Of a stretch of 64,000 nucleotides of DNA, positions 1-30,991 are shown piece by piece. The stretch covers positions 827,607-891,606 of the forward strand of contig QPGO01000005.1 in NCBI GenBank assembly GCA_008632985.1, given 5' to 3'. Both the position numbers and the translations under genes were made by a program. The DNA comes from Psammoneis japonica. Its lineage: Eukaryota. Numbering within the stretch: position 1 is the stretch's first letter; each line of letters begins with the position of its first letter. The notes under the pieces are model-generated. The model was not told where the DNA came from, did no database searches, and saw only the letters and a list, made by a program, of their open reading frames with translations.

Positions 1-1129
1 GACAAACGAAAAGGCTCCACGTGGAGTGAACAAAACGCAAGAAGCGACAGTTCTACAGTAGTTGGGGGGTCGATCCAACTCACTCTCTCCATTAGAGAGG
101 GTGGTGGCTGGCAGAGAGACCATCCTCAGGTTCAAGTTTTGCTCCTTTGTGTTGGCAAAGATGAGTGTCGCTCTCACAACGTTCCTCCTTCACATCCCCA
201 GTGCAAGCCAGAGTTTTGTGGCACCCCCAGGAGCAGAAGTGCGCTCTTGTCTCAAGGCCATGCTGGCTTGTCGATTGTCAGAAAGAAGCCCTTTTTGTTC
301 TTCATTTCTTTCTTGCTTTGGCTTTAAACAGATGAAAAATGATGTGAGATCCACTTTGTGCAATGATGGCTCCAGTGTGGCTGGAAGTTGTGTGGGAGAT
401 CTTTTGTGGCAAAAGCCCCCCCTCAATCTGGGCTCAAACAAAAAAGAGCCCAAATCTCTGGCTTGGTCATGGCAGTGGCATTGTTTGCAAACAGATCGTC
501 AATCTGCTTTGTTTGCTTCATTGCAGCAGCACCAGTTGAAGAAAGTGCATGGAAAAGACTGCGTTTGCAGTTGAAAGCAGACAACTCGCGCAAGCCACCG
601 CATCAGTGCGGCACATTTTCAGCACAACTTCTGTCAGGTTGCTCAACATTTGTGCTGCTTTGGCCCAACTGGGGTTTCAACACTTTGTGTCATCATTCTC
701 ACTTTGCTCCCAACACCTTTGACATGGTCACCGAGTGCTCTTTTTGCGGCTTGTGTGTCATGTCTTTGCTTTGGAGAAAAGCAGTTGATGCAACTCACTG
801 CATTGGCCTGGATCTGTTCTCAACAACCCCAGGTCTTCCGACATTGCTTCCATCTGAATGCAGACAAAGCAGCTCTTCAGCAAACATGACATGACACAAG
901 AAGCAGCGGTGCTCCTTCTTGCAGACTTGTTGCAGTGGGAGAAGCTTTTCCTGCACTCAACCAGAGCAATGTTGCTCTCTGTGTTCCCATGAAGCACTGC
1001 AAGGAATCTTGTGATTAAAATTTGATTGCTTTGTCAGCTTGAGCAGCAACCAGAAACTGCTTTTGCCTGCAAGTGGGAAAGGAGTCTTGAGTCTTGTTCA
1101 AGGATGGCAGCACAAACTTGCTCTCATGG

Positions 1130-2046
1130 CTTTTTGCAATCGTTCCCACAATCCGAAGGCTTCTCCCAAGGCTGCCCCCCAGCTCCTCCGTTCTCTGCCC
1201 TCATCCTCAGCGTCATCCTCAAGCAACTCAACGCTGAACTTTGCCAATGCCTTTCCTCATCTGACGTCAAATCCACTGCCTCTCTTGTCGATGACACCAG
1301 CATTTGGCTCCCGCGCACCAAACTCTCATGGTTCCTCCAATGCCTCGAGGAGCTGGGCCCGCAGCACGGCATGTGCCTCAACCACTCCAAAACACACATG
1401 CTCACCTCCATCTCTGGCACCAGCCCCTCACCCAACCTGCCCCCAGCAAGTGCCAGCAACACCCTTTGCCAAGCCCTGTCCTTCCTCAACCCTGCAAACG
1501 ACCCCGCTTTACACCCCGAAATCACCACTGGACTCCGCTTCCTTGGCCAACCCGTTGGCAGCCCTGCCTTCACCCGCACATGCCTCGAACAGAAAGCTTC
1601 CAACTTCCGCACCAAACTTGACCACCTTTCATCTTGCCTCTGCTGCACCCAAACCAAAAGCTCCCTGCACCACACCTGCGCCATCCCATTGCTCCCACAC
1701 CTTCTGGTGTCTGATGTCCACTTCAACTTCGACCCAGACAATCCACCACCACTTGCCTCCTGGACCTCACCCTTCCAACAAGATGTCCAGTGCCACTGTG
1801 ATGCTTGTCTGCAACATCTCACAGCACAGCAACAACCCCTGCCACCTCACACCATGCTTCTTGCTCACCTCCCTGCAGCCTCTGGAGGCGTCGGCGGCTG
1901 TCAGCCCACACCCACCTCCACCATCCCCTTCCTCGTCTCTCAATTTGCCCACTCTTTTTGACATGCCACTCACAGACCAACGACAGGCAACAATGACTCC
2001 CCAAAACTCCCTCCCTTCTGCGCCTGCTCTCTCCAAACCTGGATGT
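1130..2046 (+). mobile_element. Degenerate non-LTR retrotransposon (RLE/CRE-like), reverse transcriptase part
   Basis: ORF 1026-1961 contains QSEGFSQGCPPAPPFS (QG.PLSP motif), SLVDD (YxDD-like) and GMCLNHSKT, i.e. non-LTR RT domains 5-7. Interrupted at 2047 by a TIR element. Confidence 0.75.
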
Positions 2047-2115
2047 GTTCCAGCTCTGGGTGGGACCTTGCACCACTGAACTGTGACATCAACAGTTTTT
2101 TGGATCGCGTCGCAT

Positions 2116-2547
2116 TGCCCTGTGTGTGTGCCAGGCGCTGAAAAAGAAGATGTGTTACGACTTTGTCGTTGTGAAAATTGTGAGCTAGTTTAGAGCAGAG
2201 AAAATGGGATCGTGCAAATGGGGAATCTTGCCAAATCCCTGTTCGTTTGCATTTGGATCGCATTGAATCGATCGTGCGTTCGCATCATGGATCGTGCGAA
2301 TCAAGCCATCACGCGCCATGCACGAGTGATGTCATCGTGTGGAATCACGCTGCCATCGTGGGCCAGACGACGGGCCAGTGTGCTTCACACGGATGCTCTC
2401 TTGGCATCCTCAAGGAATTGCCTGAGACCCAGAGCCACGCCCTCCTGTGGTCGTGCTTCCCAGGCACGTGTCAACAACACTGCGTTGCCATGCACAAGAG
2501 GCTCATGCACGGTCTCGCCGTGTTGTCCAGTGGTGAGGCACACTGCA
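2116..2547 (-). repeat. Gypsy 3' LTR
   Basis: Aligns with 6900-7333 and lies next to the PPT. Confidence 0.9.
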
Positions 2548-2586
2548 CACTCCCCCATGATCAGGGCCGTCAAGTGACAGGATGTC

Positions 2587-5500
2587 TCACTGGTGATGGG
2601 GTGCAATCTGCCGTAGATTACACGTGTCTGTCAGCGCTCCGTTCTGGGTGCGCAACGTGCCGTTGTCATGTGCTCGGACAACTCTGGCGGGTCCTGCATG
2701 GATGTCAGAACTGCACTTAGAGGATTGTTCCTGCTTGACAAGCACCAATTGCCCTGCGGCACATTGATGCTCCTTGCGTTTCTGATTTTCACGCTTGTTG
2801 TTTGAGTGGACAAGCTTCTGCTTTCTGGTTTCTATGTGCTTCCACTCAGCACGATGGGCAACAGACAAAACCGCATCGCGTCCGAAGACCAATTGCGTGG
2901 GACTTGCACGCGTGGTCGTGTGTGCCGCAGCTCTGATGGTGAAGGCCACTGCGGAGAGGATGCCACTCCATGGGTCATCTTCGTCCAGTTCCATGTCCTG
3001 CACTGAAAAGGAACGCACCATGTCACCAAGTGTCTGGTGCACACGTTCCACCATGGCATTCGCCTGTGGATTCTGTTCACTTGTGGGTTTCTTCAAAATC
3101 CCACAGTCATTTTTAATCATCTGGCTGAATTCTGCCATAAATTCTGTCCCACGGTCATAAACTGCCTGGGTTGGCCACGGACATCTGCGTGGCCAAGTTT
3201 GTTCTACGATGTTTGCTGCGACGTCTGCGCATTTCGCAGACACTTCTTTAATCTCGAACCACCCGGTTGCTGGGTCAATCATTGTGACTGCCCACAATTG
3301 CAAGGTGTCCTTTCCGCGTCTTTGAATTTTATGTGGCCCCATCACATCCATGCACAGAGTCTCCCATGGAATTGTCTCTGCGACCTTTTCTGGCAGCTTC
3401 CCACAACGCTGCGTTCGGCGTTTTGTCTTCTGGCATCGATCGCACTTGACGCATGTAGAATGCACCGTAGACCTCACACCAGGCCAATGGAAGTGCTGGG
3501 CAATGGGCATTTCTGCACGTGTCTCACCTGGATGACACAGTGTCTCGTGGCACCATTCAGTTAGCGGAACCTGCAATGACTGTGGTGCTACGATTTTGTC
3601 CTTATGACAGATTAACTGTCGTGATGACCCTCCCCCACGATGCGCGCGAATGGAGCAGTCGGACAAGTCCTTGGCTCGTGAGAGCAGGCGCTTGTCCTTT
3701 TGTTGTGCTTTTTGAATGCGCTTGAAGCCAACAGGCAGAGATGGCTCATCTTGAGCATCTGCGTTAAAGGCTTCATGCAAAGGACGACTCAATGGAGTGT
3801 CTTTTACATCCGGATTGGCCTCGGAAGGCAAGCTGGGTGCCAGTCGAAGGCGACCAAGAGCGTCAGCGACTGGGTTGTGGGCACCCTTAACACAGCGTAA
3901 TTCGGGACTGCATTCTTCGCATGTCAGCCGCCAGCGCATGACGCACTCGGCATTGAATGCTTTGCACGTAAGATTTTTATGATCAGCATGCATGATCACA
4001 CGATGACCAAGGAGAATCGTTCAAAATTCTTTCAACGTCTCCACAATGGCGAGTGATTCTCTCTCCGTTGTTGTGTGATTTAATTGCGCACTGTTGAGCT
4101 TTCTGCTGCAAAAGGCGACAGGTTCATTGTCTTGGGACACAACTGCTCCCAATTGATGTTTAGAGGCATCGGCGCGCATCTCAAAGGGTTTGTTAAAATC
4201 AGGATGTGACAACAAAACATCATCCGACATTGCCCGTTTAACGGTTTCGAGTGCCTCATCTTCAACGGACGTCCACTCCCACTTGACAGTCTCGCTTGCG
4301 AGTCGTGTTGGTGGAGCCAAGACTTCAGAACGTCTAATCCACGTGTCGCGGCAGCAGTTCACCACACCAACAAATGAACGCAGGCCGCGTTCATTGGCTG
4401 GGGTCGCGATTCGCTCAATGGCGTCGACTTTGTCAGGCATTGGTCACATTCCATCTCTGTTGACCAGATGACCCAAGCACTCTAATTGGGTTTGACAGAA
4501 GTGAGATTTGGTTGCGTTGACTTTTGGTCCTGCTTTCTGGACCCTCAATGAAGCTTCTTCAAGTTTGTTGAGGTGATCTTCACAGGTGCCTTTCGTCACG
4601 ACGAGAAGGTCATCTGGTTCGAACGAACGACAGATCTTCAAATGAGCCTGACATGCGTTCTTGGAAAATGTCTGGCGAATTACATAATCCCATGGGCAAT
4701 GCCTGCATCTCATACTTGCCCCACGGGAAGATGAGCGTGCAGAGCTTCTTGCTATCAGCATCCAATCGGATGTGATAATAGCCCATGTTTAAATCCAGCG
4801 ATGTAGCCCACATAAAGCCTTCGAGCTTAAGTAGCATATCTTGGATATCAGGAATCGTATAAGGCAATCGCTTGATCCGTTTATTCAGCTCTCTGAAATC
4901 ATTAATAAAGCGTACCGTTAAATCTTTCTTCGGTATGATAAATGATGGAGCTGCCCAATTGGATCGGTTAACGCGTTTGAGAACACCGATACGTACTAGG
5001 CGTTCTACTTCTTTACGTAGCGTAGCTTCGTACGCACGAGGTACTTTATACGGACGAGCGTGGTATGGTTCTACACCCTCCTTGAGTTGGATATGGTAGG
5101 GTTCTCCCTTCCATTCTCCTAATGTCCCATCAAATAAGGACTCATGGCGTTTCAATAGTGCCAAAAGGTCATTTTGTTGAACTATAGAAAGTCCTATTGT
5201 CCCTCGCGTTATGTCCTCGAGGCAGGCCGGCGCGTACTTAGCGTCTAAAATACGCGAAATCCGGTCGGTTTCCGAAGATAAGGCTTCTGGATCTTTAAGA
5301 TAGAAGGAGGTTTCCACCGTAGCATCTACGTGCCTCATTGGTACTTCTCCATTGACTAATGGCCATTCTATCATCTGTTTAGAGAAGACAATATCAATGC
5401 CTTGTGTCTCCAGAATGTCACGTCCAATAATCATATCGTACTTGCCCAACTTTCCGTTGTGTACGTGGACGGTATGCTTAAGTTCTGCAGTTTCGGATAA

Positions 5501-6805
5501 TTCTGGTAACCAAAATTTAACGGTAAAGTCGTTAGACGTACTAAACGAGCCTGCTACCGTAGTCCAGTTTGTCTCAGCCGTTGAATGGCTTCGCAGACGT
5601 TTACAGTATCGACTATCGAGTAGAGTACTGCTGGCGCCACTATCTAGTAGTGCCTTAATGGTTTGAGTCTTGCCCTTGCCATGTTTAGTATTCATAGCTA
5701 TAAACAAGATTGGAGTAAGATGAGTCTTTTTAACTCGTTTACGGGATTGGCCTACAACATGTGTACGATGGTAATTCAGTTGTTCATTAATACATTCATC
5801 TAATGTATTAAAACTACCTGTATCGTGTCGGCAAGTGTCCGAGTCTTCGGAATCACTTAAGTTGAGGTCGCGGAAGTGATTAATTTCCTCCTCGCGGGCC
5901 TTGCGCTTTTTCTGAGCGTTGGCAAAGAACTCCTCGACCTTCGATCCGATGAGAGCATTAATGTCTTCCTCATTCCGAGGTTTTATGTTAGGCTTACTGC
6001 CTCCGTTACTGGAATGTCCAGTCTTGACACGTTTTACGTGGGTGTTCGGTTGGGTCGTGATCAACGACTCAGAATTGTCCGTTCTACGTCCCGGCTTGCG
6101 TGGAACCTTAGCATGTTGGTCGTGGTTACCTTCGGCAAGCTCGACCTGCTCGGTGCGCTCGCAGAACTGTACAAATTCGGCGATGGCATGCGCCAACGGG
6201 TCAAAATTCTGTAGCGTCATGAACTTCTGCCGTGCGTTCGGCACACCGCACTCGAACATGTCGCACAGTTCGTCGTCAGGCAATGGTGCCGGTGTTTCTC
6301 CATCCTCCATCACGGGTGGAAACTGAGAGATGCAGCCGTTAATTTCAACAGCCCTCGCGACGCAGTCACGAGTGGAAACCTCTGCGGGCTTGCGCATGAA
6401 GCGCCGCAGACAACGCTTCTGCAGCAGCGCCGCCCCATTTGGGAAGATGCTTTCCTTTAGCTTCGCGACGCATGCTGCGTGCGCAGCGTTGGTTTGGGAT
6501 GCCTGCTCATCAGTGGCATTGTCAAATGACGTCAGAGCATCGCCCTGCAGCAGGTCACGCATGAGGGCAAATTTCGCTGGCCCGGTCGTGATGTTTTGTC
6601 CTTCGTGCACGCGATCCACGTTGCGCAGAAAGATCAGGAGTGTCTCGCATGTAGCCGCAGAAAGGTGCGGGATGCCCATCTCGTGCATTGGACTGTCCGG
6701 ATCAGTGGGGTTGTTACGCAGCTTGAACGTCTGGCACTCGCCCTGCTGCAGCTCTTTCTTCTCCGGCCGTGCGAATGGAATCGGCGGCTCAATCCGCTTC
6801 TTCAT
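2587..6805 (-). pseudogene. Gypsy gag-pol, disrupted
   Basis: Protease ALLDSGAS; RT WAAPSFIIPKKD, DFRELN, LDLNMGYYHI; RNase H ADASKHQLG, SRKL; integrase HPG..C..C, DRGTEF, ANAMVER. Frameshift near YxDD (~4615) and TGA stops at ~4444 and ~4021. Confidence 0.92.
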
Positions 6806-6899
6806 GGTCGTTTTGAGATTTGTCGGTCCTGCCAACATTTCACAGTTTCATTTCTGTAGATTTCGTCACCTCGCACAACATGCGGGAGTGACATTGCTG

Positions 6900-7333
6900 T
6901 GCCCCATGCATGCACTGGGCGCTAAAAAAGAAGATGTGTTGCGACTTTGTCGTTGTGAAAATCATGAGCCAGTTTAGAGTGGAGAAAATGGGATCGTGCG
7001 AACAGGGAATCTTGCCAAATCCCTGTTCGTTCGCATTTGGATCGCGTTGGATCAATCGTGCGTTCGCATTGTGGATCGTGTGAATCAAGCCATCACGCGC
7101 CATGCACGAGTGATGTCATCGTGTGGAATCACGCTGCCATCGTGGGCCAGACGACGGGCTGGTGTGCTTCACACGGATGCTCTCTTAGCATCCTTCTGGA
7201 ATTGCCTGAGACCTAGAGCCACGCCCTCCTGTGGTCGTGCTTCCCAGGTGCGTGTCAACAATGCCACGTTGCCACGCACAAGAGGCTCATGCACGGGGTC
7301 TCGCCGTGTTGTCCAGCAGCGAGGCATGCTGCA
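6900..7333 (-). repeat. Gypsy 5' LTR
   Basis: Aligns with 2116-2547 and is followed by TSD GCAT. Confidence 0.9.
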
Positions 7334-7657
7334 GCATGTCGCACACACACATTTCTGCGTGTGTGATGTTCTGCGAAATTGTTTCATGCTCCCTGTTTTG
7401 CAAAGCCAAAGGCTTTCTATTTTCGACATTCATGAGAATGAAAATGCGCTGGGTGTGTTCTTCAATGTCTGCAGAATGCACCCGGGCAAACCATCAATGA
7501 TGTGCTCCAAGTGTGAAGGAGGAGATGTGTTCACAAAATTGCCTCTTTTTCTGTTGGCGACAACGTGTGTTTTTGTTGCTTGGTGCACTTGCTGCAGAGC
7601 TTGCACATGGAATTCTGCAGGTGAAATGTCACACAGAGTCCCACCTGGAACTGGAAC

Positions 7658-8770
7658 CCATCCCTGGGCCATGTCCTGCTGCCCTTTGCGCCTTTGCCAA
7701 GTCTTCCAACACTGCGGCACAGCAGCCATGCACAACCTTGACCCTCCTCCACGCTCCCTCAAAGCCCTTGTAAAAACACACCTGCTGCACAACCTCTCCC
7801 ATGACCTGCGCCATGCTCACTTCAAACAACAACTCAAGAATCTCCAACAACAAGGACCATCATGCGTTGCCCTTGTGCTCCCATTGCTCCTCTCCCCACT
7901 TGGTGCGAGCCTCCCTCTCCACTTTCTTGCCCGCTCCCTGCCCCAACAATGCTTCAAGAACCCTGAACAGTTCCTTCTCATGTTGCAATGCGCAAACTGC
8001 GGCTTCCCATCTCACCTCAACAGCCTCAATCCATCTCCTGCCCCTCTTGCACCGGCACCATTGACCCCTGTGGCAACCACGCTTTTTGCTGCTGCTCCCT
8101 GGGACACAAAACAACGGTGTCCAACGCCATCATCCGAGACGGCCTGTGTGCAACTCTCCAAACATTGGCCCCCCTGTCTGGCATCTGTGCTGACTCATCT
8201 GCCATCCACCACGAACCCGCCAACTTGGTGCCCCATTTGCCCCTCAAATGCCCTGCTGACGTGGGCATCCAGCTCACCCCAGCTGCCTCTCCTCTTGGAC
8301 ACTGCCATCTGGCAATCAATGTCACCATCCCCAAACCTCCTCCATTGCCTGCTCCTGGCTTGCCTGCCCCCACCCTTGACCCTCACACCAAGGCACACTG
8401 CATGAGCACCAAACGGAAGTTCAATGGCATCATCCACGAAACCCAACATGAAGCCACACTTGCATCTGCCCTTGACGATGCTGGCATCCACCTCATTCCT
8501 TTTGCTGTCGACCATCCAGGAGCCCCTGGATGCTTTGCTCACCACCTTCTTTTTGGTGCCAACCAAGAACACCCAATCCCTGCCCCACTGGCCCCTCCCT
8601 CCTGGACCACTGAAACCTCCTTCCAACACCCCACTGCCCATGCTGCATGATGTGCCTGCACCCAATCATCACCATCAGCCATTCTCCCCACTGCCGCCAC
8701 CGCTTGGCAAAATGTCACAGCCGAACAATTCAGCTTGACCCGCCATGCTTCTACTCCATCACAGTGGGGC
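7658..8770 (+). mobile_element. Continuation of the non-LTR element: zinc knuckle plus restriction-like endonuclease
   Basis: ORF 7988-8650 reads CPSCTGTIDPCGNHAFCC...SNAIIRDGL...EP...CPADVGI...LAINVTI, matching the C-x-C..D..G.H...C / RD / RPAD / AIDVT pattern of RLE-type LINEs. Same strand and C-rich composition as 1130-2046. Confidence 0.7.
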
Positions 8771-8776
8771 CTTCAA

Positions 8777-9121
8777 GTTCCAGCCCCAGGTGGGACTTTT
8801 TGTGACATTTGCCCTGCAGAATTCCACATGAGAGCTCTGTGTTTCGTGCTCTGGTCAATGAACACATTCATCTCTCACACAAAAAAAGGCCAAAGTTTTG
8901 GACAGTGCACCTGCCCTGTGCCATTTTTAAGACACTCAAGAATGGTGCAGAAGAAAAAAAACATTGAAAGTTGTTGAATGGATCGCCTGACAATTGCACT
9001 ATAAAATGACACAAAATTTTGCCAAACTCACGTAGAAATGTACGTGCGCGACATGCGACGCAATTCAAAAAACTGTCGATGTCACAGTTCAGCAGTGCAA
9101 GGTCCCACCTGGACCTGGAAC
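8777..9121. mobile_element. MITE-like TIR element, second family member, inverted relative to the first
   Basis: TIRs GTTCCAGCCCCAGGTGGGAC and GTCCCACCTGGACCTGGAAC. Both ends match 2047-2115/7334-7360 and 7595-7657 in reverse complement, while the middle is divergent. Confidence 0.7.
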
Positions 9122-11664
9122 ATGACGTTCAAAGCCTGAGCTTTGCAATCACCAAATCAATCGCTGCCCAATTGACCTGCTGCTCCACCAAACTGCAATC
9201 CCAACTCTCCAACCCCAGTTCAAAATCCATCGCTTTTCCCACCTGCATGACTCAATTTCACCCTTGCCCTGCATCTGCCCCTCCCCCCTTGCCACTGGGT
9301 GATGTTGCACGTGAACACTCCTCACGCGCGTGCACCACTGGGCAGCTCCCCTGACCAGCAACAAGTCCTCTGTCAAAGCTGACGCCCCAACCTCTGAGAC
9401 CATGGGTGATGCCTTTTTGACCTTTTTGTCATTGCTTTCTCACAGTGCAGCTCACTTTCAAATCTTGCATGGGTTGACTCTTCCACCAAGCAGTTTGGGA
9501 AAAAATGCAGCAGTCTTGGTGTTTGCACAAGAGCCAAACTGCTGCACAAGGCCAGTGAGTGAAGAAGTCAAGAAGAGTGCAGCAATCCAACCACCTTGAT
9601 GTTCCTCTCCTTTTGGCTGAAGTGACTCAACACCAAAATGTCACAAGGCAGAGTGTCTCCATCAGGTTGTCTGTCTCATTTTGACAAATGTTTGGGAGAG
9701 GCCAGACAATCTCAGCAGGGAACTTTCATTGAGGTTGCAGAGCTTGCTTGCAATGTCTGGCGGCACAATCTCAAACAATTGGCCCCTCATTTCAAGCAGC
9801 ATGTTTTGTGTGATGTGAAACAGCCATTCTCTCTTGCTGGCTGAAAAGTCAAAATGACATTGCCAGCCTTGCTTTGCAGCTGCATTGCAACAAGACTGAG
9901 GCCCAGCAGTTTCAAGAACAACTTCCCACTTGCACTTTTTGTGCTGCGTTCTTGTGTGTTGCTTGTCTGAGTTTGTTGAAAAGAAAGCAATGCCTTGGAC
10001 AAAGAAAGCAATGCCTTGGACAAATCATGCGACACTTCTCCACAATGAGGCTGGCTCTTGAAAAGAGCAGAAAGAATGTGTTTCTTTGTGTGTTGGGGCA
10101 GTTTTGCCAGCAGGGGCGAGTTCAGTCCAGCACAAACACAGCACATCACCTGGTCTTGCCCTTAAAAAGATTTGTCAACAAATCAGCTGCCAACTCTGGA
10201 ATGGACAATTTCAAAAGAGCTCCAAGGAATCTGCCTTTTGGAGGATTTGATGGTCTTTTGAGTGACAAATGGCCCAGCTGTTGTTGAAACAATGTGCTGA
10301 CTTCATTTGTTCTTGCAGAGAGCTCAATCATTCTTGAGTTTTGCAACAAGCCTGCTCAGCACCACCAGCAACAAACTTTCTAAGCTGAGCAATTCCAGGA
10401 GGGTCAACCACAGAGGAAATGAAGACATGGGTGCAGCAGCCACAACATTCAAGGTGGTGTCAATGGCTTCTCTCTGATGCAGGCAGCAAACCAGAGTGTG
10501 CCTTTTTGAAAGATCGCATCTCTGCAAAGGATGCTGAAGACTGTTCTGCCCATCATTGCCGCTCATTTTGTCAACAACTGCCGTGAGAACAAAATTGCCA
10601 AACAAGGGTCAACAACTGGTCCAACCCTCCTGATTGCCCACTGGTTCTCCTTGGCAGCTCCCAAAAGCTGATCTCCTTCACATGGGGCGGTGCAAGGCTT
10701 TTTCTGCTGCAGGTGTGAGACACATCTGATGCAAGTCAACTGTTTGCCCATGGCACCCATGAGGCACTGCACACTGCATGCCATCGAAGGTCTTTGTGCT
10801 CTTGTGCATGGAAAAGAGCTTTTTTTGCACTTGACCCATCCATGTGCAGCAGCCTGCCTTGTTTTTTTTTTTTGCTCTGAGCTTTTCTGCCATTCTGCCA
10901 ATGCAGGTTTTTCAGCACCCAGGCTGACTTTTGAGCACCATTCTGCCCCAGCCAAACAGCCAAGCCCACACCTTTGATGTCTGCCTCCTCGCATGGCTTC
11001 TGATCACCAAAGCAATCAGTGCCAAAGCCATCACCAGGCCAGGATGTCCAGAGTTTCTCCTTCATGGCAAGGTGATGAAGTTTGTCTGCAGGCATGTCTG
11101 GATGAAGCACTTTTGTTGGAGGCATGGGATGGACGTGGTTAAAGTCCTCCCTGGGGGATGTGGAAGTTGAATGTTTGAACATGGTCAAATTGTTCAATCG
11201 ATGAAAAACTGTTGAAACGAAGTTGGCAGCTGCAACAAGTTTGGGTTCCAGCTGGTGAAAGATGCTTTTTGCCAACGTCCCCAGTTGTTCCGTCGTTTTG
11301 AATGTGTGCGTTTGCCCTCGCGATCGGATAGTCCGAACCATCCTTTGTACCCGGTCGAATGAGTCGATGCCTTCGAAGCAAGCTATGCGATGCGACTCCC
11401 TCTACAGTGGACTATGACCATCTTACCGTAACAGAGTGGTAGGGCCCAGCAAAAAGAATCTATTTAGATACGAAGCTATTTGTCTGCTTTGCTGCGCGAT
11501 TCAGAAAAAAAACTGGGTCTATAATGACGAAGGACCAACTTTCAGTTCTCACACGTCCTCTCTAACAGGTAGCTAGTAGTAGAGAGTAGAGAGCTGAAAA
11601 GAAGCTCCTGCCCAGCATTTTTTCGAAACTTGGGATTAATTGATGTTGCCGACGAGGTGCTCTC

Positions 11665-13598
11665 TTATTTGCCCAGAAATTCACCAATCATTGCAAATGC
11701 AACAGATGTGATTGCCAAGCTCAGGAGTGCATACAATGCTATCGTTTCTGTGCGTTTTGCAGTAATAAACCCCATGTACACGGACATCGAGCCCTCGTAT
11801 TCGTATTCGAGTACCGTGTGGAGTGCAAGCAGTAGCGGAAGGATGAAAGCAATAATAATACTCCTCCCCATGACAACATTTCAGTCACGTCTTGATAGAG
11901 AATCCATGAACATCCCCATGGAAAGAACACGGCAAGCAAATTTCCGACACCTTGAGAGCAAAGGCCACTCCCTGTAAGATTCAACCTTGTGAGCACACTA
12001 CAGAAATTAGAGCCGTGCAATCATATGAGATTCACCTAGGTATAAAACAGCACAGCGTTAGAGCAAGGTGGAATAGACATACCTGAATAAAGGACTACCG
12101 AGACCGACGATGAAAAAGGCGAAGACGGAAGCACCTATTGCCATGGTTGTTCCAAACACGCCGCTCATCATGGACTCTAGCATGTTATCAGATACATTTG
12201 GAATAGATAAAGCTCCAGTGACTCCAATGACAATGTAAAGGAGTGCCGAGAGAATTGAAGAACCATGAACCACTATGTTTGAGAGTCAAGGAAGTTACAA
12301 CACTTTAGTCGAACACGAATAATCCAGAAGTCGGCACTCGGACAAAACCAACTACAACCCAATCTCTTACCTTTCGGAACGTCGACATCCGGCTTCTTCT
12401 CGTACAACCAAGCCGGGATCGCAATAACTAACGCGAAGTTGAACAAGACTACGCCAAAAAGTTCATCCCAGCTGTTACCCCAAAGTGGAAGTCTGCGAAA
12501 ATCTATTCCGTTCAATAGAAACTGAGCTGTGAACTGCACGATGTTGGCCAACAAAACAAGGAATGCGACTACTTGAAATGATGCATTCTCCTGTGACAAA
12601 GCATTAGTCACGGTTGAGGGGGTGGAATCGCTGATCATTCATTCGCAATTACTGGATACGAATTGAAGGATAAAACGCTTACCTTGAGATCCATCAGAGC
12701 CAAGGGAAGGAGAAGCGTCGCCGAAACGATGTAGCCAAGAGTCAAGATGAAACCACTCGTATTCTTGAAGGGGATACAATCTCCATTGATGATTTCTTCG
12801 TGTCGGCACATACCCGCGTCCCAATGCACTATATGAAACGCGTCGCTCCCAAATATCTGAACGCCAACCGAGCCTCCCGGAACATGATGCCCAAAAAAGG
12901 TATCGACAACTTGAGACGTGTCTATAATGGACGATATATTAAGACATGTGATGCAACAAAAGAAAAATATTTCCGTAATCACAAACCACTTCTCGCCCCA
13001 GAAAAGCTTAAACGCTTCGCTGTATTCAATCTAGTCATGAAGAATCGACACAAATTTATAGTTTTAGCCGTCCAGAACCACACAAGCAATCAACAAACAT
13101 AACGAAACAATATTACATGTACATCTAGTTTTCTCACCTCTCTGTGAAAGTTCTGGTTTCCGGGAACCTTTGAAATGACATCGGCCATGTTGAGGGAACA
13201 AAGCGCAGAAAGCACGCAGACAAAGAGTAGGGTAGCAACGGTGGGAATCAATCCGGAACGTTGAAACGTTGCGGGCAAACTCAGCATGGCAGGACCTGTT
13301 AATGAATTCACTGCTATTGCCATGCTTCCCCACATGCCAATGGTACCTTCTCGCAAAGAAATAGGGGACAAAAACAAGACGGAGTTTAGCAGGCTGGCTG
13401 GTTCTGGATTCAAACAGAGTATCGTCAGTACCTACCACGATGCTTTGAAACACTAGTAGAAGCGTGCTGAGTTTCAATGTCGAGACCATCAACTGGCTCT
13501 TGGCTCCCATAACCCCTTGCCCTGTGACAGGAGTGAAGGTGAAGCGGAGTAAGCTCTGTCGTCGAATCATCTACATCTCTTGGGTGCGGAGGAGACAT
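11665..13598 (-). CDS. Amino acid transporter (Aa_trans/APC-like), multi-exon; start inferred
   Basis: Hydrophobic exons GTIGMWGSMAIAVNSLTGPAMLSLPATFQRSG, LFGVVLFNFALVIAIPAW and VSDNMLESM, separated by GT-AG introns. First exon read as MSPPHPRDVDD... Confidence 0.85.
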
Positions 13599-13714
13599 TC
13601 TCTTTCCCCTGTTGTTGCTTCACATGCAGTAGCAAAACGGGACTTCCAATCAATGTGGGACTGCCCATGATAGATTTGCAGGAAAGACACCAACAGCTTG
13701 ACTGCAACGTGTTT

Positions 13715-13743
13715 CTGCTGTTGCTGCTGCTGCTGCTGCTGCT
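13715..13743. repeat. (CTG)n microsatellite upstream of the transporter
   Basis: Visible trinucleotide run. Confidence 0.8.
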
Positions 13744-13941
13744 TCAGGTTTCCCAAAGATTGAAAGATGCTCTGCGCCGCGCCAAGCGTTGGCGGGCGCG
13801 GAAGCACGAATGAAAGCGGGATTGGCCATCGATGCGAGTTACCATGGTACCGACGGCGGACAGAAGATCGTCATGCGTCAGCAGCCGAAAGTGAGACATT
13901 TCATTTATGCAGGCGACGCACCAATCGTAAGTCAGTAAAAT

Positions 13942-14130
13942 TGACGTGTCGCTCTGACACGTCACATTTTCTCATATGAAAACGGCAGTTTGTTGGGCGA
14001 AGGAAAAAACCAAGCGAAGGCGGGAAGGCAGGAAGGCGAAAGAACAACAACGTCAGTTGTGCGAGCCCGCAATAAAAACCATTGGGAGAAACAAGCCAGA
14101 GGAATGGCGGACGTGTCACATCTTACGTCA
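13942..14130. promoter_or_regulatory. Cluster of four TGACGT/ACGTCA (bZIP-type) motifs in a divergent promoter
   Basis: Motifs at 13942, 13959, 14050 and 14125; function is inferred only. Confidence 0.4.
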
Positions 14131-14261
14131 CGCGTCATGCAGGATTCAAAATTGCCGAATCTCACGTCGTTGATGCGATTTCTGCTATCATTTTCTTCGT
14201 TGTTCGCTCCAACATACGAATAAAACAAATCGTTGCGATTATTATTTGTGATACGAATGCA

Positions 14262-14894
14262 ATGGTCGAGGCACGCCAAGATAGCCGTGCATCTCCGATG
14301 CTGCCTTGCAGAGTGAACCACCGCGGTGATTCCGAACAGTTGTGTTTGGAAACTCTCATGATCCCGAGGAACATGCGGGGCGCAGATTGTCGTTTGTCCA
14401 AGGTTGCCCCTCGTTGCGAGCAACCGGTGTTTTCATTCAAGAAACGCCATAGAGAAGCAAACAACGTGATCATTGACCGACGTACAGGCACTGCCTCCGA
14501 TAAGATCCCCGTCTTTCGAGTGGGTCCACTTCCTCCAGCTCCCCGCCTGCCTTCCATGAAGCCCTGCCCGCACCGAATGCCACTCTTGTTCCCAAACCGA
14601 CCTGCGCATGACGAGACACATCAACATGCCAGAAAGAAGAGAAAGATGCGCCATAGAAGAGTGACCAGTACGACGTACACGAGCGCCGTACTCTGCGAAC
14701 GAGATGATTGCATGTCAGACGCAGCCGCCATTCTCGCGGAGATGGCTCTACTTGAGGAAGTGAAAAGCACGCAACGGACAACCAAACCAACTTTCCAGCC
14801 TTTACGTCACCCGTTTTGCCGCTTCTCAACAAAGCAAACAACAGCTTCCTTTCGCAAGTACAAGACAAAGGAACCTATGCATGGTTTCAAATAG
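14262..14894 (+). CDS. Hypothetical protein
   Basis: ORF of about 210 aa in a normal-composition island, divergent from the transporter; no domain recognised. Confidence 0.5.
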   Translation: MVEARQDSRASPMLPCRVNHRGDSEQLCLETLMIPRNMRGADCRLSKVAPRCEQPVFSFKKRHREANNVIIDRRTGTASDKIPVFRVGPLPPAPRLPSMKPCPHRMPLLFPNRPAHDETHQHARKKRKMRHRRVTSTTYTSAVLCERDDCMSDAAAILAEMALLEEVKSTQRTTKPTFQPLRHPFCRFSTKQTTASFRKYKTKEPMHGFK

Positions 14895-15077
14895 GATGTG
14901 AACTGAAAATATTAGGCCTATAGTTGTTGCAGTCAAGCTGCGTGATTGTCGTTACCCCTTACGAGTTCACCCCTTTTCATGTAATCGACAGTAGAGAGTG
15001 TAACCCACTGTCCCTTGTCCGCAATTATCGAACCGTCGAATACTTGGCTAACTCCAAAAATGCTCGTTTCTTGGACT

Positions 15078-16187
15078 TCATTCAAGATCCAGACTTACTC
15101 TCTTTGGTCGCTTCCTTCGTTTTGAGTTGTCCGAATCTGTTTCCAACAAACAGCCCCAGCCGTCATCATCTTGGGGCAGTTTATCTAGGTCATCCAGATT
15201 AAACGGTTTTCCAAGTAGGGCAAACATCTCTTGCAGTTTACCTGGATCATCTGAAATGATGTGGACTTCCTCTTGGTGAGAGAACGCCGGGCGAACCTCG
15301 GTCAGAACGGGGGTGTAGTCGAAGATGTCTTTTAGTGAGAGCTCATCCAGACCCAACAAAATAGCCTTCTTTTTCTTGTCTCCCTTTGATTCGGAACGCT
15401 TTGTCTTGTCATGACTCTCAGGAGGCGTACTCTCGATTGTCTTACGCATCGGAGAAGGGCTGCTCATTGGGGTTGATGGCACTTGTACCTCTTGGACTTC
15501 CTTTCGTCTACGATTTGGAGTTGCTGGTCCTTGTATCTCGTCTACACCCTTTTTCACAGATTCAATGCTATCATCCATGTTTGCGCAAACAATCTGAGAG
15601 CAGAAACTACCATCATCCAAGGACACACCCATCAAATGTGAAATTTCAGATTCAAGAAGTGTACCAAGCGATGATTCTTCGAGACTTATCAAAGGCTCGT
15701 CTAACGCCGGCATGTCGTAAAAGTTCGGCGTGGGGACATCCAAATCAGAAGTCGAAGCTTTCGATCCTTTCGCTTCGGTGCGCGCAATACCATCACTCAG
15801 CAATGGCTGTCCTCTAAGAAACAAATTGTGATAATATGCGCCCTTATCTGGGCCATCTTGAACTCTGTTGAATCCATAAAGATTCAGCTGCTTCTGAAAC
15901 GACGACCAACTGCATTGACGAAACACCTTGGGCATACAATTGAGAACAAACTCTCGGGCTTTATGCACGCGGAAGCATCGACCATGAGGCTGCCATGACA
16001 CCACATCAGTGTAATCCTTTTGTTCTGCGTCTTTGAGTAGCATGTGCAGAACTCGTGGGAATGCAATGGGTGGTTGTGATTCCGAAGAAATGTCGTCAAC
16101 AGCGACCTCTAGATCTTGAAGAATCTCAAGAGAAGAATCCGTGAGGTAGCCTGCTTCATCCGAGGAGGAAGTTTCCGTAGAAGACAT
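15078..16187 (-). CDS. Heat shock transcription factor (HSF DNA-binding domain)
   Basis: FPRVLHMLL...VVSWQPHGRCFRVH...SFQKQLNLYGFNR...YYHNLFLRG. Confidence 0.93.
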   Translation of the reverse strand: MSSTETSSSDEAGYLTDSSLEILQDLEVAVDDISSESQPPIAFPRVLHMLLKDAEQKDYTDVVSWQPHGRCFRVHKAREFVLNCMPKVFRQCSWSSFQKQLNLYGFNRVQDGPDKGAYYHNLFLRGQPLLSDGIARTEAKGSKASTSDLDVPTPNFYDMPALDEPLISLEESSLGTLLESEISHLMGVSLDDGSFCSQIVCANMDDSIESVKKGVDEIQGPATPNRRRKEVQEVQVPSTPMSSPSPMRKTIESTPPESHDKTKRSESKGDKKKKAILLGLDELSLKDIFDYTPVLTEVRPAFSHQEEVHIISDDPGKLQEMFALLGKPFNLDDLDKLPQDDDGWGCLLETDSDNSKRRKRPKRVSLDLE

Positions 16188-16659
16188 TATCTCTCCCCTG
16201 ATAAAGCTGTTGTTGTGACAAGGACCAGAGCTTACTCGAAGAGGGACAACACGAGAACTTGGTGATCGCTGAGATTGAGATATACGGTGCCCCGAGCCTT
16301 GTGGGCAAAGCTTGATGGACGATTCTCTATTTCGCGGGTTTCTTCTTGTTGGGATGTGCAGTGAAACATGCATGACATGTCGCTCGCCTTGCTCCGGACA
16401 ACTCGATAAAGAAATGACTTAATGTTCGAAATTATGTCCTGTTGAATACATAAAGGAGAACAATTATATGGACTTCTCTAAATATCCAAGTTGTTAAGTG
16501 ATGTTAGGAGGACTGCTGGTTTTCGATCTATCTGTTAATTAGCTCCGACATTTTATTTCGCAAAGACAGCCAATTTGGTTGATGGCTCACTTCTCATAAC
16601 CTACATAGTTATATATGATAATATTGACTTATAAACTTATTATGTATGCAGAAATAGCA

Positions 16660-19600: not shown

Positions 19601-21230
19601 TCTCATGATGCAGTTGACTGCTGTCACCCAGATCTTGCATGCTGCTGTTGATGATGGCCTCTTGCGGATTTGGCGCTGGGCTTTGCACGGCAATGATGCC
19701 CCCTTTCATCACAAACATCTGCCAGGGCATTGTCGCTGTGCAGAGCTTGCCACATCAGTTGGACACCTGGTCAGATGACACCAGGAGTGCTGCAGTGCTC
19801 CTTGATGGGCTCCCAAAGCTTTTGAGCAAGAAGTTGTTCTCAGAACAAAGAACACTGCTGGCCAACCATTGTTTTTTGAGCCTTGCTCTAGGTTGATCTC
19901 AGGTGGCTTGCTGTCAGCCCACACCACCCAAAAGCTGCAACAACAACGACCCAAAACACATCTGAGCCAAAGCAGCAATGGCACCAAGGGCTGGCTTGCT
20001 GGGCATGTGCAAAGCCAGGGCCAGCCCCAGAAGATTTTGGCTTGGCTCTGGAAGCTTCAGCCATCAAATGGAGCTGCCAAAGCAAAGAGAGCAGGTTGCA
20101 CCAATCTGCAATCTTTTTGCTTTTTGTGCAATGTGCATGTTTGCACAGCCTTGTTTTTCATGCAGCACACTCTTTTTAGCCCCGGCATGTGCTTGAATTT
20201 TGATCTTGGACAAGAAAAGAAGTTTGGCATTGACATGGTCCTGTTGGAAGATTTTGGGGAACTCCTGTTTTTTTTTCTAAAGAAAAATGACTTGTCATGG
20301 CTGGGAACCCCCACAAAAGCACAAGTTGATGGTGTTTCTTGCACCAGAACTGCAACATCGTGATGATGACAACAACCCAGAATTTCAAAAAAGTTGCACA
20401 GTGGAGCATTTTTCTTGCAATGAGCACCCTTTCACAGATGCCAGGAGCTTCCTCCTTTGGCTGTTGCACCCCCAATGAGGCTGATTGGCAGCTTGGGTCA
20501 GCAAGAGTGCATTGTGCTCAGAAGCACAAGCAGGTCCATGTCACATGTGAAGGTGTCATGTGGCAAAAACAGTGGAGCATTTTTTTGCAATGGGCACCCT
20601 TGCATGGATGCCAGAGCCCTCCTCTTTTGGTTGTTTCATGCCCCCAATGAGGCCGATTGGCAGCTGGGGTCAGCAAGCACACACCATGCTCAGGAGCACA
20701 GGTGTGGGTTCATGTCGTTGCAATGGGCACCCTTGCGCAGATGCCGGAGCCCTCTTCCTTTTGCACTCGGTCATTGGAAATGCTTGAGAGGAGCCACAAT
20801 GCCAGCCCGGCACCATCATCTTGTGTCAGTGGAAGACTCCCTGCCGCCATGGGATTTTGAGTGGTCTGCAAGGTTTGTCCGAGTCTCTGCATGCATTTCT
20901 GACATGGTGCTTCATTGGTCAAGGGTTCCCATGAGTCATCAGAACGCTGTTGTGCATCATGCAATTGAGGCCACTGTGCAAAATTCTGTCACAAGAGGAA
21001 GAAACTGCACACCAGGGTTCTTAGCGTCATCAGCCAAAACATTGGTTGTTGTTGTCACGGACATGCCAGCACCTGTGATTGTCCATCTTTTTCCCTCCTG
21101 CTTTACGAGCCATCAAATCCGCCACGGTCGCGGTTTGGCATGGTGCGAGTTTTGTTGGCTGTGTCACGTGATTTCTTGCTTGCGAGCTTTTGGGCCCTGT
21201 CAATCGGCATGTCAGGTTCAACAGAAGATG
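16660..21230. other. TpA- and CpG-depleted degenerate repeat domain, family unidentified
   Basis: Very few TA or CG dinucleotides and TG/CA-rich; many Tyr-free spurious ORFs; internal imperfect repeats of 150-170 bp at 20395-20760. Confidence 0.7.
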
Positions 21231-21681
21231 ACATAAATTCCCGATTGATGCTCGCGCTGAGATGTTGTGGTAAACGACCCACAGTGACAGGTGCTGGACC
21301 CAGCGGCCAGAGGTAGACTCATTATGAATATTCACATTCGGCACTAGCAATGACACGGGATCACATTTCTCTGAAGCCACTACCTGCCATCACGAACAGC
21401 CGTTTGGGTAACGAATCCGTCTTTCTGCAATTTTTCGCGACGACCATAAAAGCAGAAGGAGATGTAGAAACTGATCAGAAATACGGCAGAGACGTCTAAT
21501 TTCAACGACCACAGTTTTCTGGAATTATGCAGATGATAACATTGATTCTGTATGTTATGCAAGCAAACCAATACAAAACTGATTTGGTGTACGCTCGTCC
21601 ATCACTCCCCGCGCCACCAAAATCAGTGGCTGTTCTTCACGCAAAGCATGGCAGCACATGTTTACACTCCACCAGTCAACA

Positions 21682-29388: not shown

Positions 29389-30700
29389 NNNNNNNNNNNN
29401 NNNNNNNNNNNNNNNNNNNNNNNNNNNNNNNNNNNNNNNNNNNNNNNNNNNNNNNNNNNNNNNNNNNNNNNNNNNNNNNNNNNNNNNNNNNNNNNNNNNN
29501 NNNNNNNNNNNNNNNNNNNNNNNNNNNNNNNNNNNNNNNNNNNNNNNNNNNNNNNNNNNNNNNNNNNNNNNNNNNNNNNNNNNNNNNNNNNNNNNNNNNN
29601 NNNNNNNNNNNNNNNNNNNNNNNNNNNNNNNNNNNNNNNNNNNNNNNNNNNNNNNNNNNNNNNNNNNNNNNNNNNNNNNNNNNNNNNNNNNNNNNNNNNN
29701 NNNNNNNNNNNNNNNNNNNNNNNNNNNNNNNNNNNNNNNNNNNNNNNNNNNNNNNNNNNNNNNNNNNNNNNNNNNNNNNNNNNNNNNNNNNNNNNNNNNN
29801 NNNNNNNNNNNNNNNNNNNNNNNNNNNNNNNNNNNNNNNNNNNNNNNNNNNNNNNNNNNNNNNNNNNNNNNNNNNNNNNNNNNNNNNNNNNNNNNNNNNN
29901 NNNNNNNNNNNNNNNNNNNNNNNNNNNNNNNNNNNNNNNNNNNNNNNNNNNNNNNNNNNNNNNNNNNNNNNNNNNNNNNNNNNNNNNNNNNNNNNNNNNN
30001 NNNNNNNNNNNNNNNNNNNNNNNNNNNNNNNNNNNNNNNNNNNNNNNNNNNNNNNNNNNNNNNNNNNNNNNNNNNNNNNNNNNNNNNNNNNNNNNNNNNN
30101 NNNNNNNNNNNNNNNNNNNNNNNNNNNNNNNNNNNNNNNNNNNNNNNNNCTCACGAGCGGAGCAGCGGGTTGCAAACCCCTGCAGGTGAGCTGACTGGAG
30201 GTGGACAAGACCCCCGAACCGTTCTCATTTTATGTCGGTTGGATTTCCTGATCAGGCTGGCCAGTTGACGCAGGCGTTGGGCGCTGTGGACGAACGAACA
30301 AACGCGGGAAAGCACCCTCGCCCCAACGCAGGCTGCAACCACGGTCCTTGGCCGTGAAGATGTGTACACACGTGTGTCTTCAGCGACGAAGATCCTTGAA
30401 TGTGTGGGGTTCTTGACCGTCAACCGATGAACAGGCACATCAAGGGATGAGGATCAAGGATGGGCTTGGATATGACCGTTGAATGTATGTCTTCAGCGAT
30501 CAAAGGAGCACAATCAATCCAGATATCCAGCGGTAAGGAGACTTGACGGTGACGTTAACTTCCTGCCGATGCCCTGGCATTGAATGCGCGTAGACTTGCC
30601 GATGTATGTAGAATATACACGGAGGTCCACGTAGAATTAAAAATAGCGTCGTTGGTAAATCAACGACGACGATGGCGGTTGCTCAATGGGTTGACAATGA

Positions 30701-30715
30701 GCAAGACTGTTAATC
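30701..30715 (-). promoter_or_regulatory. Putative primer-binding site complementary to the tRNA-Asn anticodon arm
   Basis: GATTAACAGTC directly follows the 5' LTR on minus; the same sequence is at 32701 in the second element. Confidence 0.55.
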
Positions 30716-30991
30716 TGACAGAAAATGAAGGCAAATGGCAAGAATTCAAACAATAACTCCTTACTGCTGTCTAAATGGCAGATGAGTCTCCGCTCAGAGA
30801 CCGTTGCAGGAGCCGAAAGACGTGCAAGTCGGTATAATCGGGCTACTGTTATTATTCTTGTGAGCCTTGTGGCTCGAAAGCAAACTACATCGCGCGTGAA
30901 CGCGCGGAACTAAAGCACACAAAACTGTGCACGGTAAACTAAACAGCGCGCGATGCTTCGCGCGCACCTAAATCCTGTTCAAATCCTGTCA
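30716..30991 (-). repeat. Copia 5' LTR (least mutated copy)
   Basis: Keeps TA at sites where the other three copies have TG or CA. Confidence 0.95.

Follow-up and report, generated by a model that had tools for sequence, protein, structure and literature searches.

In all likelihood, the Ty3/gypsy insertion described here, which lies in a diatom-like nuclear genome, underwent TA-specific A:T to G:C hypermutation after it had integrated. The window, the whole 64,000-nucleotide stretch of DNA that was analysed, contains this insertion together with older repeats, a second LTR-like repeat family and host genes. A:T pairs were changed to G:C at TpA, a change on one strand giving TG and a change on the other giving CA. 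About 89% of TA dinucleotides were converted in each LTR, and half of the sites changed in both LTRs show TG in one copy and CA in the other, the arrangement that we call reciprocal. Decay of CpG to TG/CA runs alongside, about 17 times slower per site. The process leaves host genes alone, acts in blocks with sharp edges, a 1.3-kb central block being unconverted, and ends, in old repeats, with DNA devoid of both TA and CG. Such a process would presumably be driven by an enzyme, with silenced repeats or foreign DNA as its target. The most likely chemistry is deamination of DNA adenine that is preceded by a 5' T, the proposal already made for Bigelowiella natans, where the signature is the same. 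A thymine-side lesion and adenine deamination give an identical sequence product.

Structure of the element

Positions 2116-7333 hold exactly one LTR retrotransposon, the sense strand of which is the minus strand. Its 3' LTR (2116..2547, minus strand), from which TA is nearly gone, and its 5' LTR (6900..7333, minus strand) are direct repeats that end in TG...CA; their identity is about 90%, or about 91% over 416 bp, and they carry the reciprocal TG/CA sites discussed below. The element is flanked by a GCAT target-site duplication (2112..2115 on the left and 7334..7337 on the right), which is read directly in the sequence; paralogous empty-site contigs, free of the insertion, join 2112 to 7337. 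A likely polypurine tract (2548..2562, minus strand), purine-rich and reading GGGGGAG on the sense strand, abuts the 3' LTR.

Pfam domains on the minus strand follow the order RVP/RVT_1/RT_RNaseH_2/Integrase_H2C2/rve. An open frame of 745 aa (4610..6847, minus strand) encodes a gag-like region, the protease and the N-terminal part of the reverse transcriptase (RT), and the end of RT, RNase H and the integrase follow at 2587..4611 (minus strand). This second portion is fully converted, retains none of its conserved Tyr codons and has a frame broken by two in-frame TGA stops. The first stop (4021..4023, minus strand) stands where 91% of 34 homologues have Arg and represents a CpG-type change of CGA to TGA, and the second (4444..4446, minus strand) falls at a position of weak homologue consensus (Gln, 44%). 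There is also a frameshift (4614..4616, minus strand) at which other family contigs have 5 extra bases, the extra triplet at 4616 being TAC (depth 626), CAC (141) or TGC (128) among family copies. On the basis of its LTRs, its target-site duplication and the order protease-RT-RNase H-integrase, the element is a Ty3/gypsy LTR retrotransposon. Searching the window with the element by blastn returned the LTR pair and no other copy, and tblastn with 8 homologues did not find a second pol in the window. An open frame across LTR1, used as a protein query, gave 4 candidates, none of which was significant.

Reciprocal changes in the LTR pair

An earlier note on this DNA had pointed to reciprocal TG/CA at the same positions of the two LTRs, and the strings that it quoted are present at 2116-2141 and 6900-6925. 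Aligning 2116-2549 with 6900-7333 yields 432 columns and 44 differences, comprising 42 transitions and 2 transversions, and pyrimidine-purine dinucleotides hold 40 of these 44 differences. Fourteen sites (28 differences) are reciprocal, with LTR1 carrying TG at seven of them and CA at the other seven. Changes confined to one copy are found at 5 sites as TA versus TG/CA and at 7 sites as CG versus TG/CA; the three examples of retained TA given in the earlier note (gctag/gccag, ttggc/ttagc and cccag/cctag) are all present. The 4 differences located outside pyrimidine-purine pairs consist of one A/G difference and a 3-base cluster at 2411-2413. Dinucleotides common to both LTRs number 25 for CG/CG, 1 for TA/TA, 39 for TG/TG and 27 for CA/CA.

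Adjacent double differences occur 16 times, whereas 10,000 random placements produced 4.3 on average and never more than 11; the pattern is therefore beyond chance. For 14 adjacent double transitions there is just one simple origin, the one suggested in the earlier note: mutation of a palindromic dinucleotide on opposite strands in the two copies. Moreover, a single template gives rise to both LTRs of an insertion; because these LTRs share a template and a common target-site duplication and yet differ through changes on both strands, the changes must have taken place after integration.

Conversion of the pol coding region

We derived a homologue consensus from 34 of 120 listed homologues, namely those of at least 690 aa, and compared the translated element with it. 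At 424 conserved positions the converted part of pol shows 117 mismatches, of which 44 are explained by TA>TG/CA, 7 by CG>TG/CA and 10 by other transitions, while 56 are not single transitions; the reverse change, TG/CA>TA, accounts for 0 of the 117. The effect is most direct at the 22 conserved Tyr positions of converted pol, which now specify Cys (TGY) in 13 cases, His (CAY) in 6, Ala in 2, Phe in 1 and Tyr in none. Conserved Arg is kept at 23 of 29 positions. Within the central block, 4 of 6 conserved Tyr are kept, and none of the 12 mismatches to the consensus is a TA-type change. Other transitions per conserved position amount to 10/424 in the converted part versus 2/69 in the central block. 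The A:T>G:C changes are thus restricted to TpA, with no increase at other A/T sites.

The occurrence of both TG and CA products at Tyr codons and at the reciprocal LTR sites means that both strands are targeted. The 44 coding sites form 13 strand runs versus 20.8 expected, which suggests clustering, but the LTR sites form 8 runs versus 8 expected and the Tyr-only sites 12 versus about 10. Since these results conflict, we make no claim of processivity.

Block structure, sequence context and the rest of the window

The unconverted central block (4700..6050, minus strand) contains 13-22 TA per 200 bp and mostly keeps its conserved Tyr. Its left edge is sharp (4680-4750) and its right edge is graded (5830-6220); the block may just as well have been patched in later, by gene conversion with an intact copy as donor. 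When the central block is taken as a stand-in for the ancestral mix of contexts, purine-TA-pyrimidine makes up 1 of 47 surviving TA sites versus 29 of 107 sites in the block (p=1e-4), and TAG is over-represented among the survivors. We infer that the process prefers purine-TA-pyrimidine contexts. A comparison of converted with surviving contexts at protein-inferred sites was discarded, since in a Tyr codon the base 3' of TA is always a pyrimidine.

Elsewhere in the window, 68 segments of 500 bp, which contain the Pfam-identified host genes, have a TA o/e of 0.58; a further 21 such segments have TA o/e 0.17 and CG o/e 0.81, and another 34 have TA o/e 0.03 and CG o/e 0.20. Repeats in the window accordingly fall in two states, TA-less only or both TA-less and CG-less. 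Host genes are spared, with normal TA, and conversion is confined to foreign or repeated DNA. The left flank (1..2111) belongs to an older repeat that has lost its TA and is poor in CG; both dinucleotides persist in paralogues that have decayed less. The right flank (7338..11000) is in the same old TA-less, CG-poor repeat state as judged from dinucleotide content and contigs. A comparison of four copies of the second LTR-like repeat identifies one unconverted copy (30646..30991, minus strand) and partly to fully converted copies at 24112-24381, 32425-32770 and 35455-35786; in this family at least 6 sites have TA, TG and CA in different copies. Metagenome relatives show ordinary TA content in 78 of 79 loci and are usable as outgroups only, and one unrelated metagenome contig has the same signature in partial form.

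With respect to the host, the best named matches of a UFD1 gene located in the window are from diatoms (58-73% identity), and a spliced-leader motif gave 0 matches. A dinoflagellate host with hydroxymethyluracil was dropped as a candidate on these two results.

These patterns bear on the idea that TpA sites were lost through untargeted or non-enzymatic damage, through biased repair where DNA replicates late or is heterochromatic, or through a thymine modification that miscodes as C. Any of these would leave the same sequence product and would suit the uniformly TA-less state of old non-coding DNA. We estimate, however, that the excess in rate over other sites is about 200-400 fold, and the changes are all-or-none by block, with a sharp edge inside one element and an unconverted LTR copy adjoining converted DNA. 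In addition, the process depends on tetranucleotide context and, according to the available part of the Bigelowiella natans study, is on in some lines only in that organism (10.64898/2026.01.13.699255). We consider these origins improbable.

Ancestral state of the reciprocal sites

We modelled the LTR pair with two classes of ancestral dinucleotide, TA and CG, assuming one uniform rate per class. The fit gives p(TA)=0.89 and q(CG)=0.12 per LTR copy and assigns a TA origin to 98% of the reciprocal sites under uniform per-class rates, a hot subset of CG sites in the LTRs being outside that assumption. The 33 ancestral TA per LTR implied by the model match the unconverted block, which has 40-41 TA per 500 bp. 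Contigs from other copies of the family lead in the same direction. Run X1 provides 7261 contigs on the element, and 524 of 553 variable places in the family are transitions; by depth, the family has hundreds of copies. TA is the majority state in family contigs among the variable places listed and readable, 40 of 558 being listed and the 14 reciprocal LTR sites not among these; at 7048-7049, other family copies mostly have TA, with CA and TG as minorities. All of this read support stems from a single sample, possibly the one from which the assembly was made; runs X2 and X3 give little coverage (30 and 2 contigs on the stretch, respectively). The likelihood, the polarity of changes in pol, the second, four-copy repeat and the family contigs all agree with the earlier proposal that TA rather than CG is the main ancestor, and they support TA as the ancestral state at nearly all reciprocal LTR sites.

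Ordinary decay of methylated CpG would instead require the reciprocal sites to have once been CG, with deamination striking one strand in the first LTR and the other strand in the second. CG>TG/CA changes are present, at the 7 LTR sites with CG in one copy and among the coding changes (7, an Arg>TGA stop included); old repeats are at CG o/e 0.20, and family contigs read CG at 7081 and 7054, positions at which LTR2 shows TG and CA, respectively. Nevertheless, the 25 CG pairs intact in both LTRs put the loss at about 0.12 per copy, from which about 0.3 reciprocal sites would be expected. A CG-only source is worse by 16.4 lnL than the two-class model, and each LTR would have had to start with about 59 CG and about 6 TA, a composition that does not resemble the unconverted block. 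Neither the passage from Tyr codons to Cys/His nor the three-state sites that include TA can be reached from CG, and we consider CpG decay a very unlikely source of the reciprocal sites.

Timing of the changes and data quality

A similarly slight chance attaches to A-to-I editing of the retrotransposon transcript, by an ADAR/ADAT-like enzyme, before reverse transcription. ADAR editing is typically A-to-G with a 5' U preference, as stated in the available part of the Bigelowiella natans study (10.64898/2026.01.13.699255). Changes in the interior of the element could also, in principle, pre-date insertion. The single template of the two LTRs, however, means that their 19 TA-derived differences must be post-integration, and the changes on the two strands are interleaved. 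Moreover, the changes extend to a flank that is not a retroelement and to a second repeat family, and the excess of TAG among surviving sites is opposite to the preference of ADAR for a 3' G.

Least credible is an artefact of sequencing or assembly in which modified TA and CG bases are miscalled strand by strand. In its favour, such a miscall of a palindromic modified site would yield random TG/CA, the runs have no recorded library type and the scaffold contains gaps (1128 N). Against it, 1307 contigs of run X1 (possibly the assembly's own data) agree to at least 99%, at word depths near 60, as from accurate reads; the sequence of host genes and of one block of the element is normal; an unrelated metagenome contig has the same partial signature; and the available part of the Bigelowiella natans study describes the same signature from Illumina data (10.64898/2026.01.13.699255).

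Implications

TpA-directed hypermutation after integration would have several consequences for genome analysis. Divergence between the LTRs is 10.2% overall and, by our estimate, about 1-2% outside pyrimidine-purine pairs. As the earlier note had warned, the concentration of differences at hypermutable dinucleotides inflates the age derived from LTR divergence; such dating fails here, with ages too high by an estimated factor of about 5-10. Homology signals in converted repeats are lost through the replacement of Tyr by Cys or His, and the loss of TAA and TAG stops opens long false ORFs in all six frames, by which gene prediction can be misled. The old repeats display the end state of the process, DNA without TA and CG.

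A tentative reading, which we hold with less than even confidence, is that diatoms, or this lineage of them, possess a RIP-like defence in which a natural DNA adenine deaminase that prefers purine-TA-pyrimidine works block by block on integrated double-stranded repeats until no TpA is left. As a rhizarian bears the same signature, such a defence would be of ancient origin and common across the SAR supergroup (stramenopiles, alveolates, rhizarians). TpA-directed hypermutation of selfish DNA would then extend to a second lineage and, for the first time, to a stramenopile, and the question of a conserved eukaryotic 'editing immunity' would become testable in diatoms. A natural DNA adenine deaminase acting at TpA, if real, would also be of interest for base editing.

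Comparison with known systems

The substrate of ADAR/ADAT and APOBEC3 enzymes is RNA or the cDNA that reverse transcription is producing, and their marks fall on one strand. The process seen here resembles them in its deaminase-type transitions, in the restraint of retroelements and, for the adenosine deaminases, in the 5' T/U preference; unlike them, it changed an integrated double-stranded copy on both strands after insertion. RNA hyperediting of the ADAR type was rejected, given that a single insertion here has unlike LTRs, with changes on both strands. Decay of methylated CpG in transposons, which turns CG into TG/CA on either strand, corresponds to the slower component here and covers 7 of 26 variable pyrimidine-purine LTR sites and about 0.3 of the 14 reciprocal ones.

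RIP in fungi changes C to T, chiefly CpA to TpA, and so creates TA. Like RIP, the process described here is a transition-only hypermutation that kills repeats, spares genes, skews dinucleotides and inflates apparent age. Unlike RIP, it destroys TA and raises GC content, and RIP-type changes make up 0 of the 117 coding mismatches; fungal RIP was rejected on the loss of TA in place of a gain and on this lack of RIP-type coding changes. Diatom DNMT4 enzymes are related to the fungal RIP factor RID, and the available part of the source describes their function as uncharacterised (PMC9998398). Our literature search for diatom hypermutation, RIP or TpA found no diatom report.

The strongest resemblance is to Bigelowiella natans, in which, according to the available part of the source, integrated giant-virus and virophage DNA undergoes A/T>G/C hypermutation restricted to TpA, a signature measured directly in mutation-accumulation lines (bioRxiv preprint, 2026, 10.64898/2026.01.13.699255). 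As far as that part goes, the two systems have in common the conversion of TpA only, to TpG or CpA according to strand, the targeting of foreign DNA with ordinary genes spared, a rate excess of the order of 100-1000 fold, and a long-term trace in the form of clusters poor in TpA and rich in TpG/CpA, in which reverse-transcriptase and transposase domains are over-represented. On the same footing, they differ in host, Bigelowiella natans being a rhizarian and the host here a diatom-like stramenopile, and in target, which here comprises LTR retrotransposons and repeats in very many copies whereas the main Bigelowiella natans region is single-copy. Conversion here is near-complete (TA o/e 0.03, as against 0.45 in the virus region of Bigelowiella natans) and coupled in time with CpG loss, and tetranucleotide context and block edges are visible. 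The process is reconstructed here from fossils, whereas the de novo rate was measured in Bigelowiella natans. We file TpA-only hypermutation in Bigelowiella natans as the closest known case, of which the diatom element would be a further member.

The element and its terminal repeats

The reciprocal TG/CA pattern between the long terminal repeats (LTRs) of the gypsy element at 2116-7333 is real, and all of the reciprocal strings and the three TA-retaining examples quoted in the earlier note are found in the window. A single Ty3/gypsy retrotransposon fills this interval on the minus strand, with Pfam domains in the order protease, reverse transcriptase, RNase H, integrase zinc-binding, and integrase core. 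Its LTRs (LTR1, 2116-2547; LTR2, 6900-7333) start with TG and end with CA, and are flanked by identical copies of a 4-bp target-site duplication, GCAT, at 2112-2115 and 7334-7337. This copy is dead because of two in-frame TGA codons (4021-4023 and 4444-4446, minus strand) and a frameshift near 4614-4616 (minus strand), where other family copies carry five extra bases. One contig (depth 161) from the public sequencing run X3 links 6134 to 6844, minus 709 bases of gag-like region, and this junction suggests an internally deleted family derivative.

Alignment of 2116-2549 with 6900-7333 gives 44 differences in 432 columns, of which 42 are transitions and 40 lie within pyrimidine-purine dinucleotides. 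The pair has 14 reciprocal sites, where TG faces CA, together with five sites at which TA, and seven at which CG, is opposed by TG or CA. Outside pyrimidine-purine pairs, the LTRs differ only by one A/G and a cluster of three bases (2411-2413). There are 16 adjacent double differences, where 10,000 random placements give 4.3 on average and 11 at most; the intact pairs common to both LTRs are 25 CG and one TA. At the reciprocal sites LTR1 carries seven TG and seven CA; the TA-derived differences arose on both strands.

TA is the main ancestral dinucleotide

We modeled the LTR counts with two site classes, TA and CG, each with one per-copy conversion probability and with half of the doubly converted sites invisible. 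Fitted values are p=0.89 (TA) and q=0.12 (CG), the weak point being the assumption of a single rate per class, and the expected numbers (0.4 TA/TA, 6.3 TA-single, 25 CG/CG, 7 CG-single, and 13.4 reciprocal) fit the counts. The model gives TA as the source of 98% of reciprocal sites, so that CG would account for about 0.3 of the 14, and forcing all of them to a CG origin costs 16.4 log-likelihood units. The implied pre-mutation content of about 33 TA per LTR agrees with the 40-41 TA per 500 bp in the unconverted part of the element.

Polarity was also read from homologues. A search with the integrase region gave 1031 relatives, of which the 120 listed have 44-62% identity and are nearly all metagenomic; we used the 34 of these 120 with a length of at least 690 aa, and called a position conserved if at least 60% of them agreed. 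The converted part of the element (coordinates below 4700) has 117 mismatches over 424 conserved positions: 44 are explained by one TA>TG or TA>CA change, seven by CG>TG/CA, and 10 by other transitions; the other 56 do not reduce to a single transition. None of the 117 runs in the reverse direction, from TG or CA to TA. The 22 conserved tyrosine positions in this part are occupied by 13 Cys (TGY), six His (CAY), one Phe, two Ala and no Tyr, and conserved Arg is retained at 23 of 29 positions. Within the unconverted central block (4700-6050), conserved Tyr is retained as TAT at four of six positions, and TA-type changes account for 0 of 12 mismatches. Alternative subsets give 10 Tyr>Cys and six Tyr>His (first 60 matches), and Cys or His at 13 of 13 integrase Tyr positions (another 30 homologues). 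Since Tyr codons cannot arise from CG, the direction is fixed as TA to TG/CA.

A second LTR-like repeat has four copies in the window (24112-24381, 30646-30991, 32425-32770, and 35455-35786). When these are aligned in one orientation, at least six sites have TA, TG, and CA in three different copies, and one site has CG, CA, and TG; copy 30646-30991 retains TA at sites that are converted in the others. The LTR model, the Tyr-codon polarity, and these three-state sites agree that TA was the main ancestral state. Copy 30646-30991, which has normal TA, is bordered directly by converted DNA (30001-30500) on one side and by fully decayed DNA (from 31001 onward) on the other, and its partner at 24112-24381 is only partially converted. 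Four N runs (1128 in total) at 27100-30150 leave the interior of the element bounded by these two repeats incomplete.

Contigs of the gypsy family come from one sample, and the runs may be the assembly's own data. In run X1, 7261 contigs align to the element with at least 80% identity, and transitions account for 524 of 553 variable places. At 7048-7049, where both window LTRs have TG, the second base is A in 1730, and the first base C in 720, of 1957 depth units of other copies, which implies a TA majority with CA and TG minorities. The extra triplet at 4616 is TAC (depth 626), CAC (141), or TGC (128), and the family state is CG at 7054 and 7081, where LTR2 has CA and TG, respectively. The variant places listed, 40 of 558, include none of the 14 reciprocal sites. 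Paralogous copies of the flank, on contig loose ends, retain TA and CG where the window flank has CA and TG.

Timing, blocks and sequence context

Both LTRs derive from one template and share a target-site duplication, and so the TA-derived differences arose in integrated DNA. By our count, about 196 LTR positions lie outside pyrimidine-purine pairs and carry four differences (two events), giving a divergence of about 1-2% versus 10.2% overall. LTR ages are therefore inflated, and the reading offered in the earlier note (ancestral TA, opposite-strand hits, inflated ages) is supported. The per-copy loss probability is two to three orders of magnitude higher for TA sites (0.89) than for other sites (about 0.005-0.01); CG decay, from p and q, is about 17 times slower than TA loss.

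Conversion acts in blocks. TA per 200 bp rises from about 2 to 14-22 at a sharp edge near 4680-4750, and the other edge of the central block is graded, with TA density dropping between about 5830 and 6220. This block may have escaped targeting, or may be a later gene-conversion patch. Taking the central block to stand in for the ancestral context mix, surviving TA in converted parts is depleted in purine-TA-pyrimidine (1/47 versus 29/107, p=1e-4) and enriched in pyrimidine-TA-purine (22/47 versus 27/107, p=0.014). Four of the five LTR sites with TA kept in one copy are pyrimidine-TA-purine, as is the single TA common to both, and this bias points to a sequence-reading agent.

Dinucleotide classes across the window

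Observed/expected ratios in 123 windows of 500 bp fall into three classes. Sixty-eight are normal (TA 0.58, CG 0.96, TG 1.19, CA 1.16) and include all recognized host genes; 21 are TA-less (TA 0.17, CG 0.81, TG 1.39, CA 1.47), comprising the converted parts of the element at 2116-7333 and the second repeat family; and 34 are TA-less and CG-less (TA 0.03, CG 0.20, TG 1.86, CA 1.73), comprising old repeats that include the element's flanks, themselves multi-copy. These classes imply that TA was lost first and CG later. The flanks at 1001-2000 and 8001-9000 have GC skews of -0.40 and -0.34 and more CA than TG (121 vs 73; 118 vs 95), which would fit deamination of adenine and cytosine mainly on one strand of an old repeat. 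A tandem array of 42-bp units, with 12 in-register, overlapping copies, occupies 34390-35092, inside a TA-less, CG-normal element.

The genes of the window are compact, and occur in intron-poor islands (11000-17000, 21000-23500, 37000-39000, and 43000-63500) that give way abruptly to decayed repeats. The genes found there include HSF, a rhodopsin-family 7TM protein, KRI1, a methyltransferase, UFD1, PPR proteins, MRP-S28, Myb, a GDSL lipase, and a mitochondrial carrier, among others; the best named relatives of UFD1 are from diatoms (58-73% identity). Open reading frames of 354-631 aa without a Pfam match lie at 6978-8402, 1015-2076, and 33549-35441 (all plus strand). Because TA-less DNA has no TAA or TAG stops, reading frames stay open in several frames, and gene finders would probably make false calls there.

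Comparison with known systems

Repeats in this genome undergo TpA-specific hypermutation after integration, accompanied by slower CpG decay. The inferred agent is most likely an enzyme directed against silenced DNA, probably one that deaminates adenine. Our search of the accessible literature found no report of TpA hypermutation in diatoms. Among 79 metagenome loci with integrase relatives, one (L058:1-1518) has TA and CG observed/expected ratios of 0.19 and 0.04 and Cys or His at five of nine conserved Tyr positions; the other 78 look ordinary, and three control loci retain Tyr at 8/12, 11/11, and 12/13 positions. The signature is present in part in this locus, a hint from sequence that the TpA process may occur more widely.

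Fungal RIP has a similar purpose but the chemistry runs the opposite way, and the change that defines it was sought among the homologue mismatches of the element and not found. Diatom DNMT4 enzymes, which have no known function, are relatives of RID, the RIP factor (PMC9998398), and could be relevant only to the CpG component. The closest parallel is in the chlorarachniophyte Bigelowiella natans. According to a 2026 preprint on its mutation-accumulation lines (10.64898/2026.01.13.699255), two integrated viral regions gained 231 new mutations, of which 230 are A>G or T>C, all on TpA. The rate there, about 6e-7 per site per generation, is a thousandfold that of the genome, and only some lines show it. 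TpA-poor coding sequences in that species are enriched in reverse-transcriptase and transposase domains, and its authors propose an ADAT2-like adenine deaminase (10.64898/2026.01.13.699255). The signature described there recurs here in a different supergroup branch, on a high-copy retrotransposon and with nearly complete conversion.
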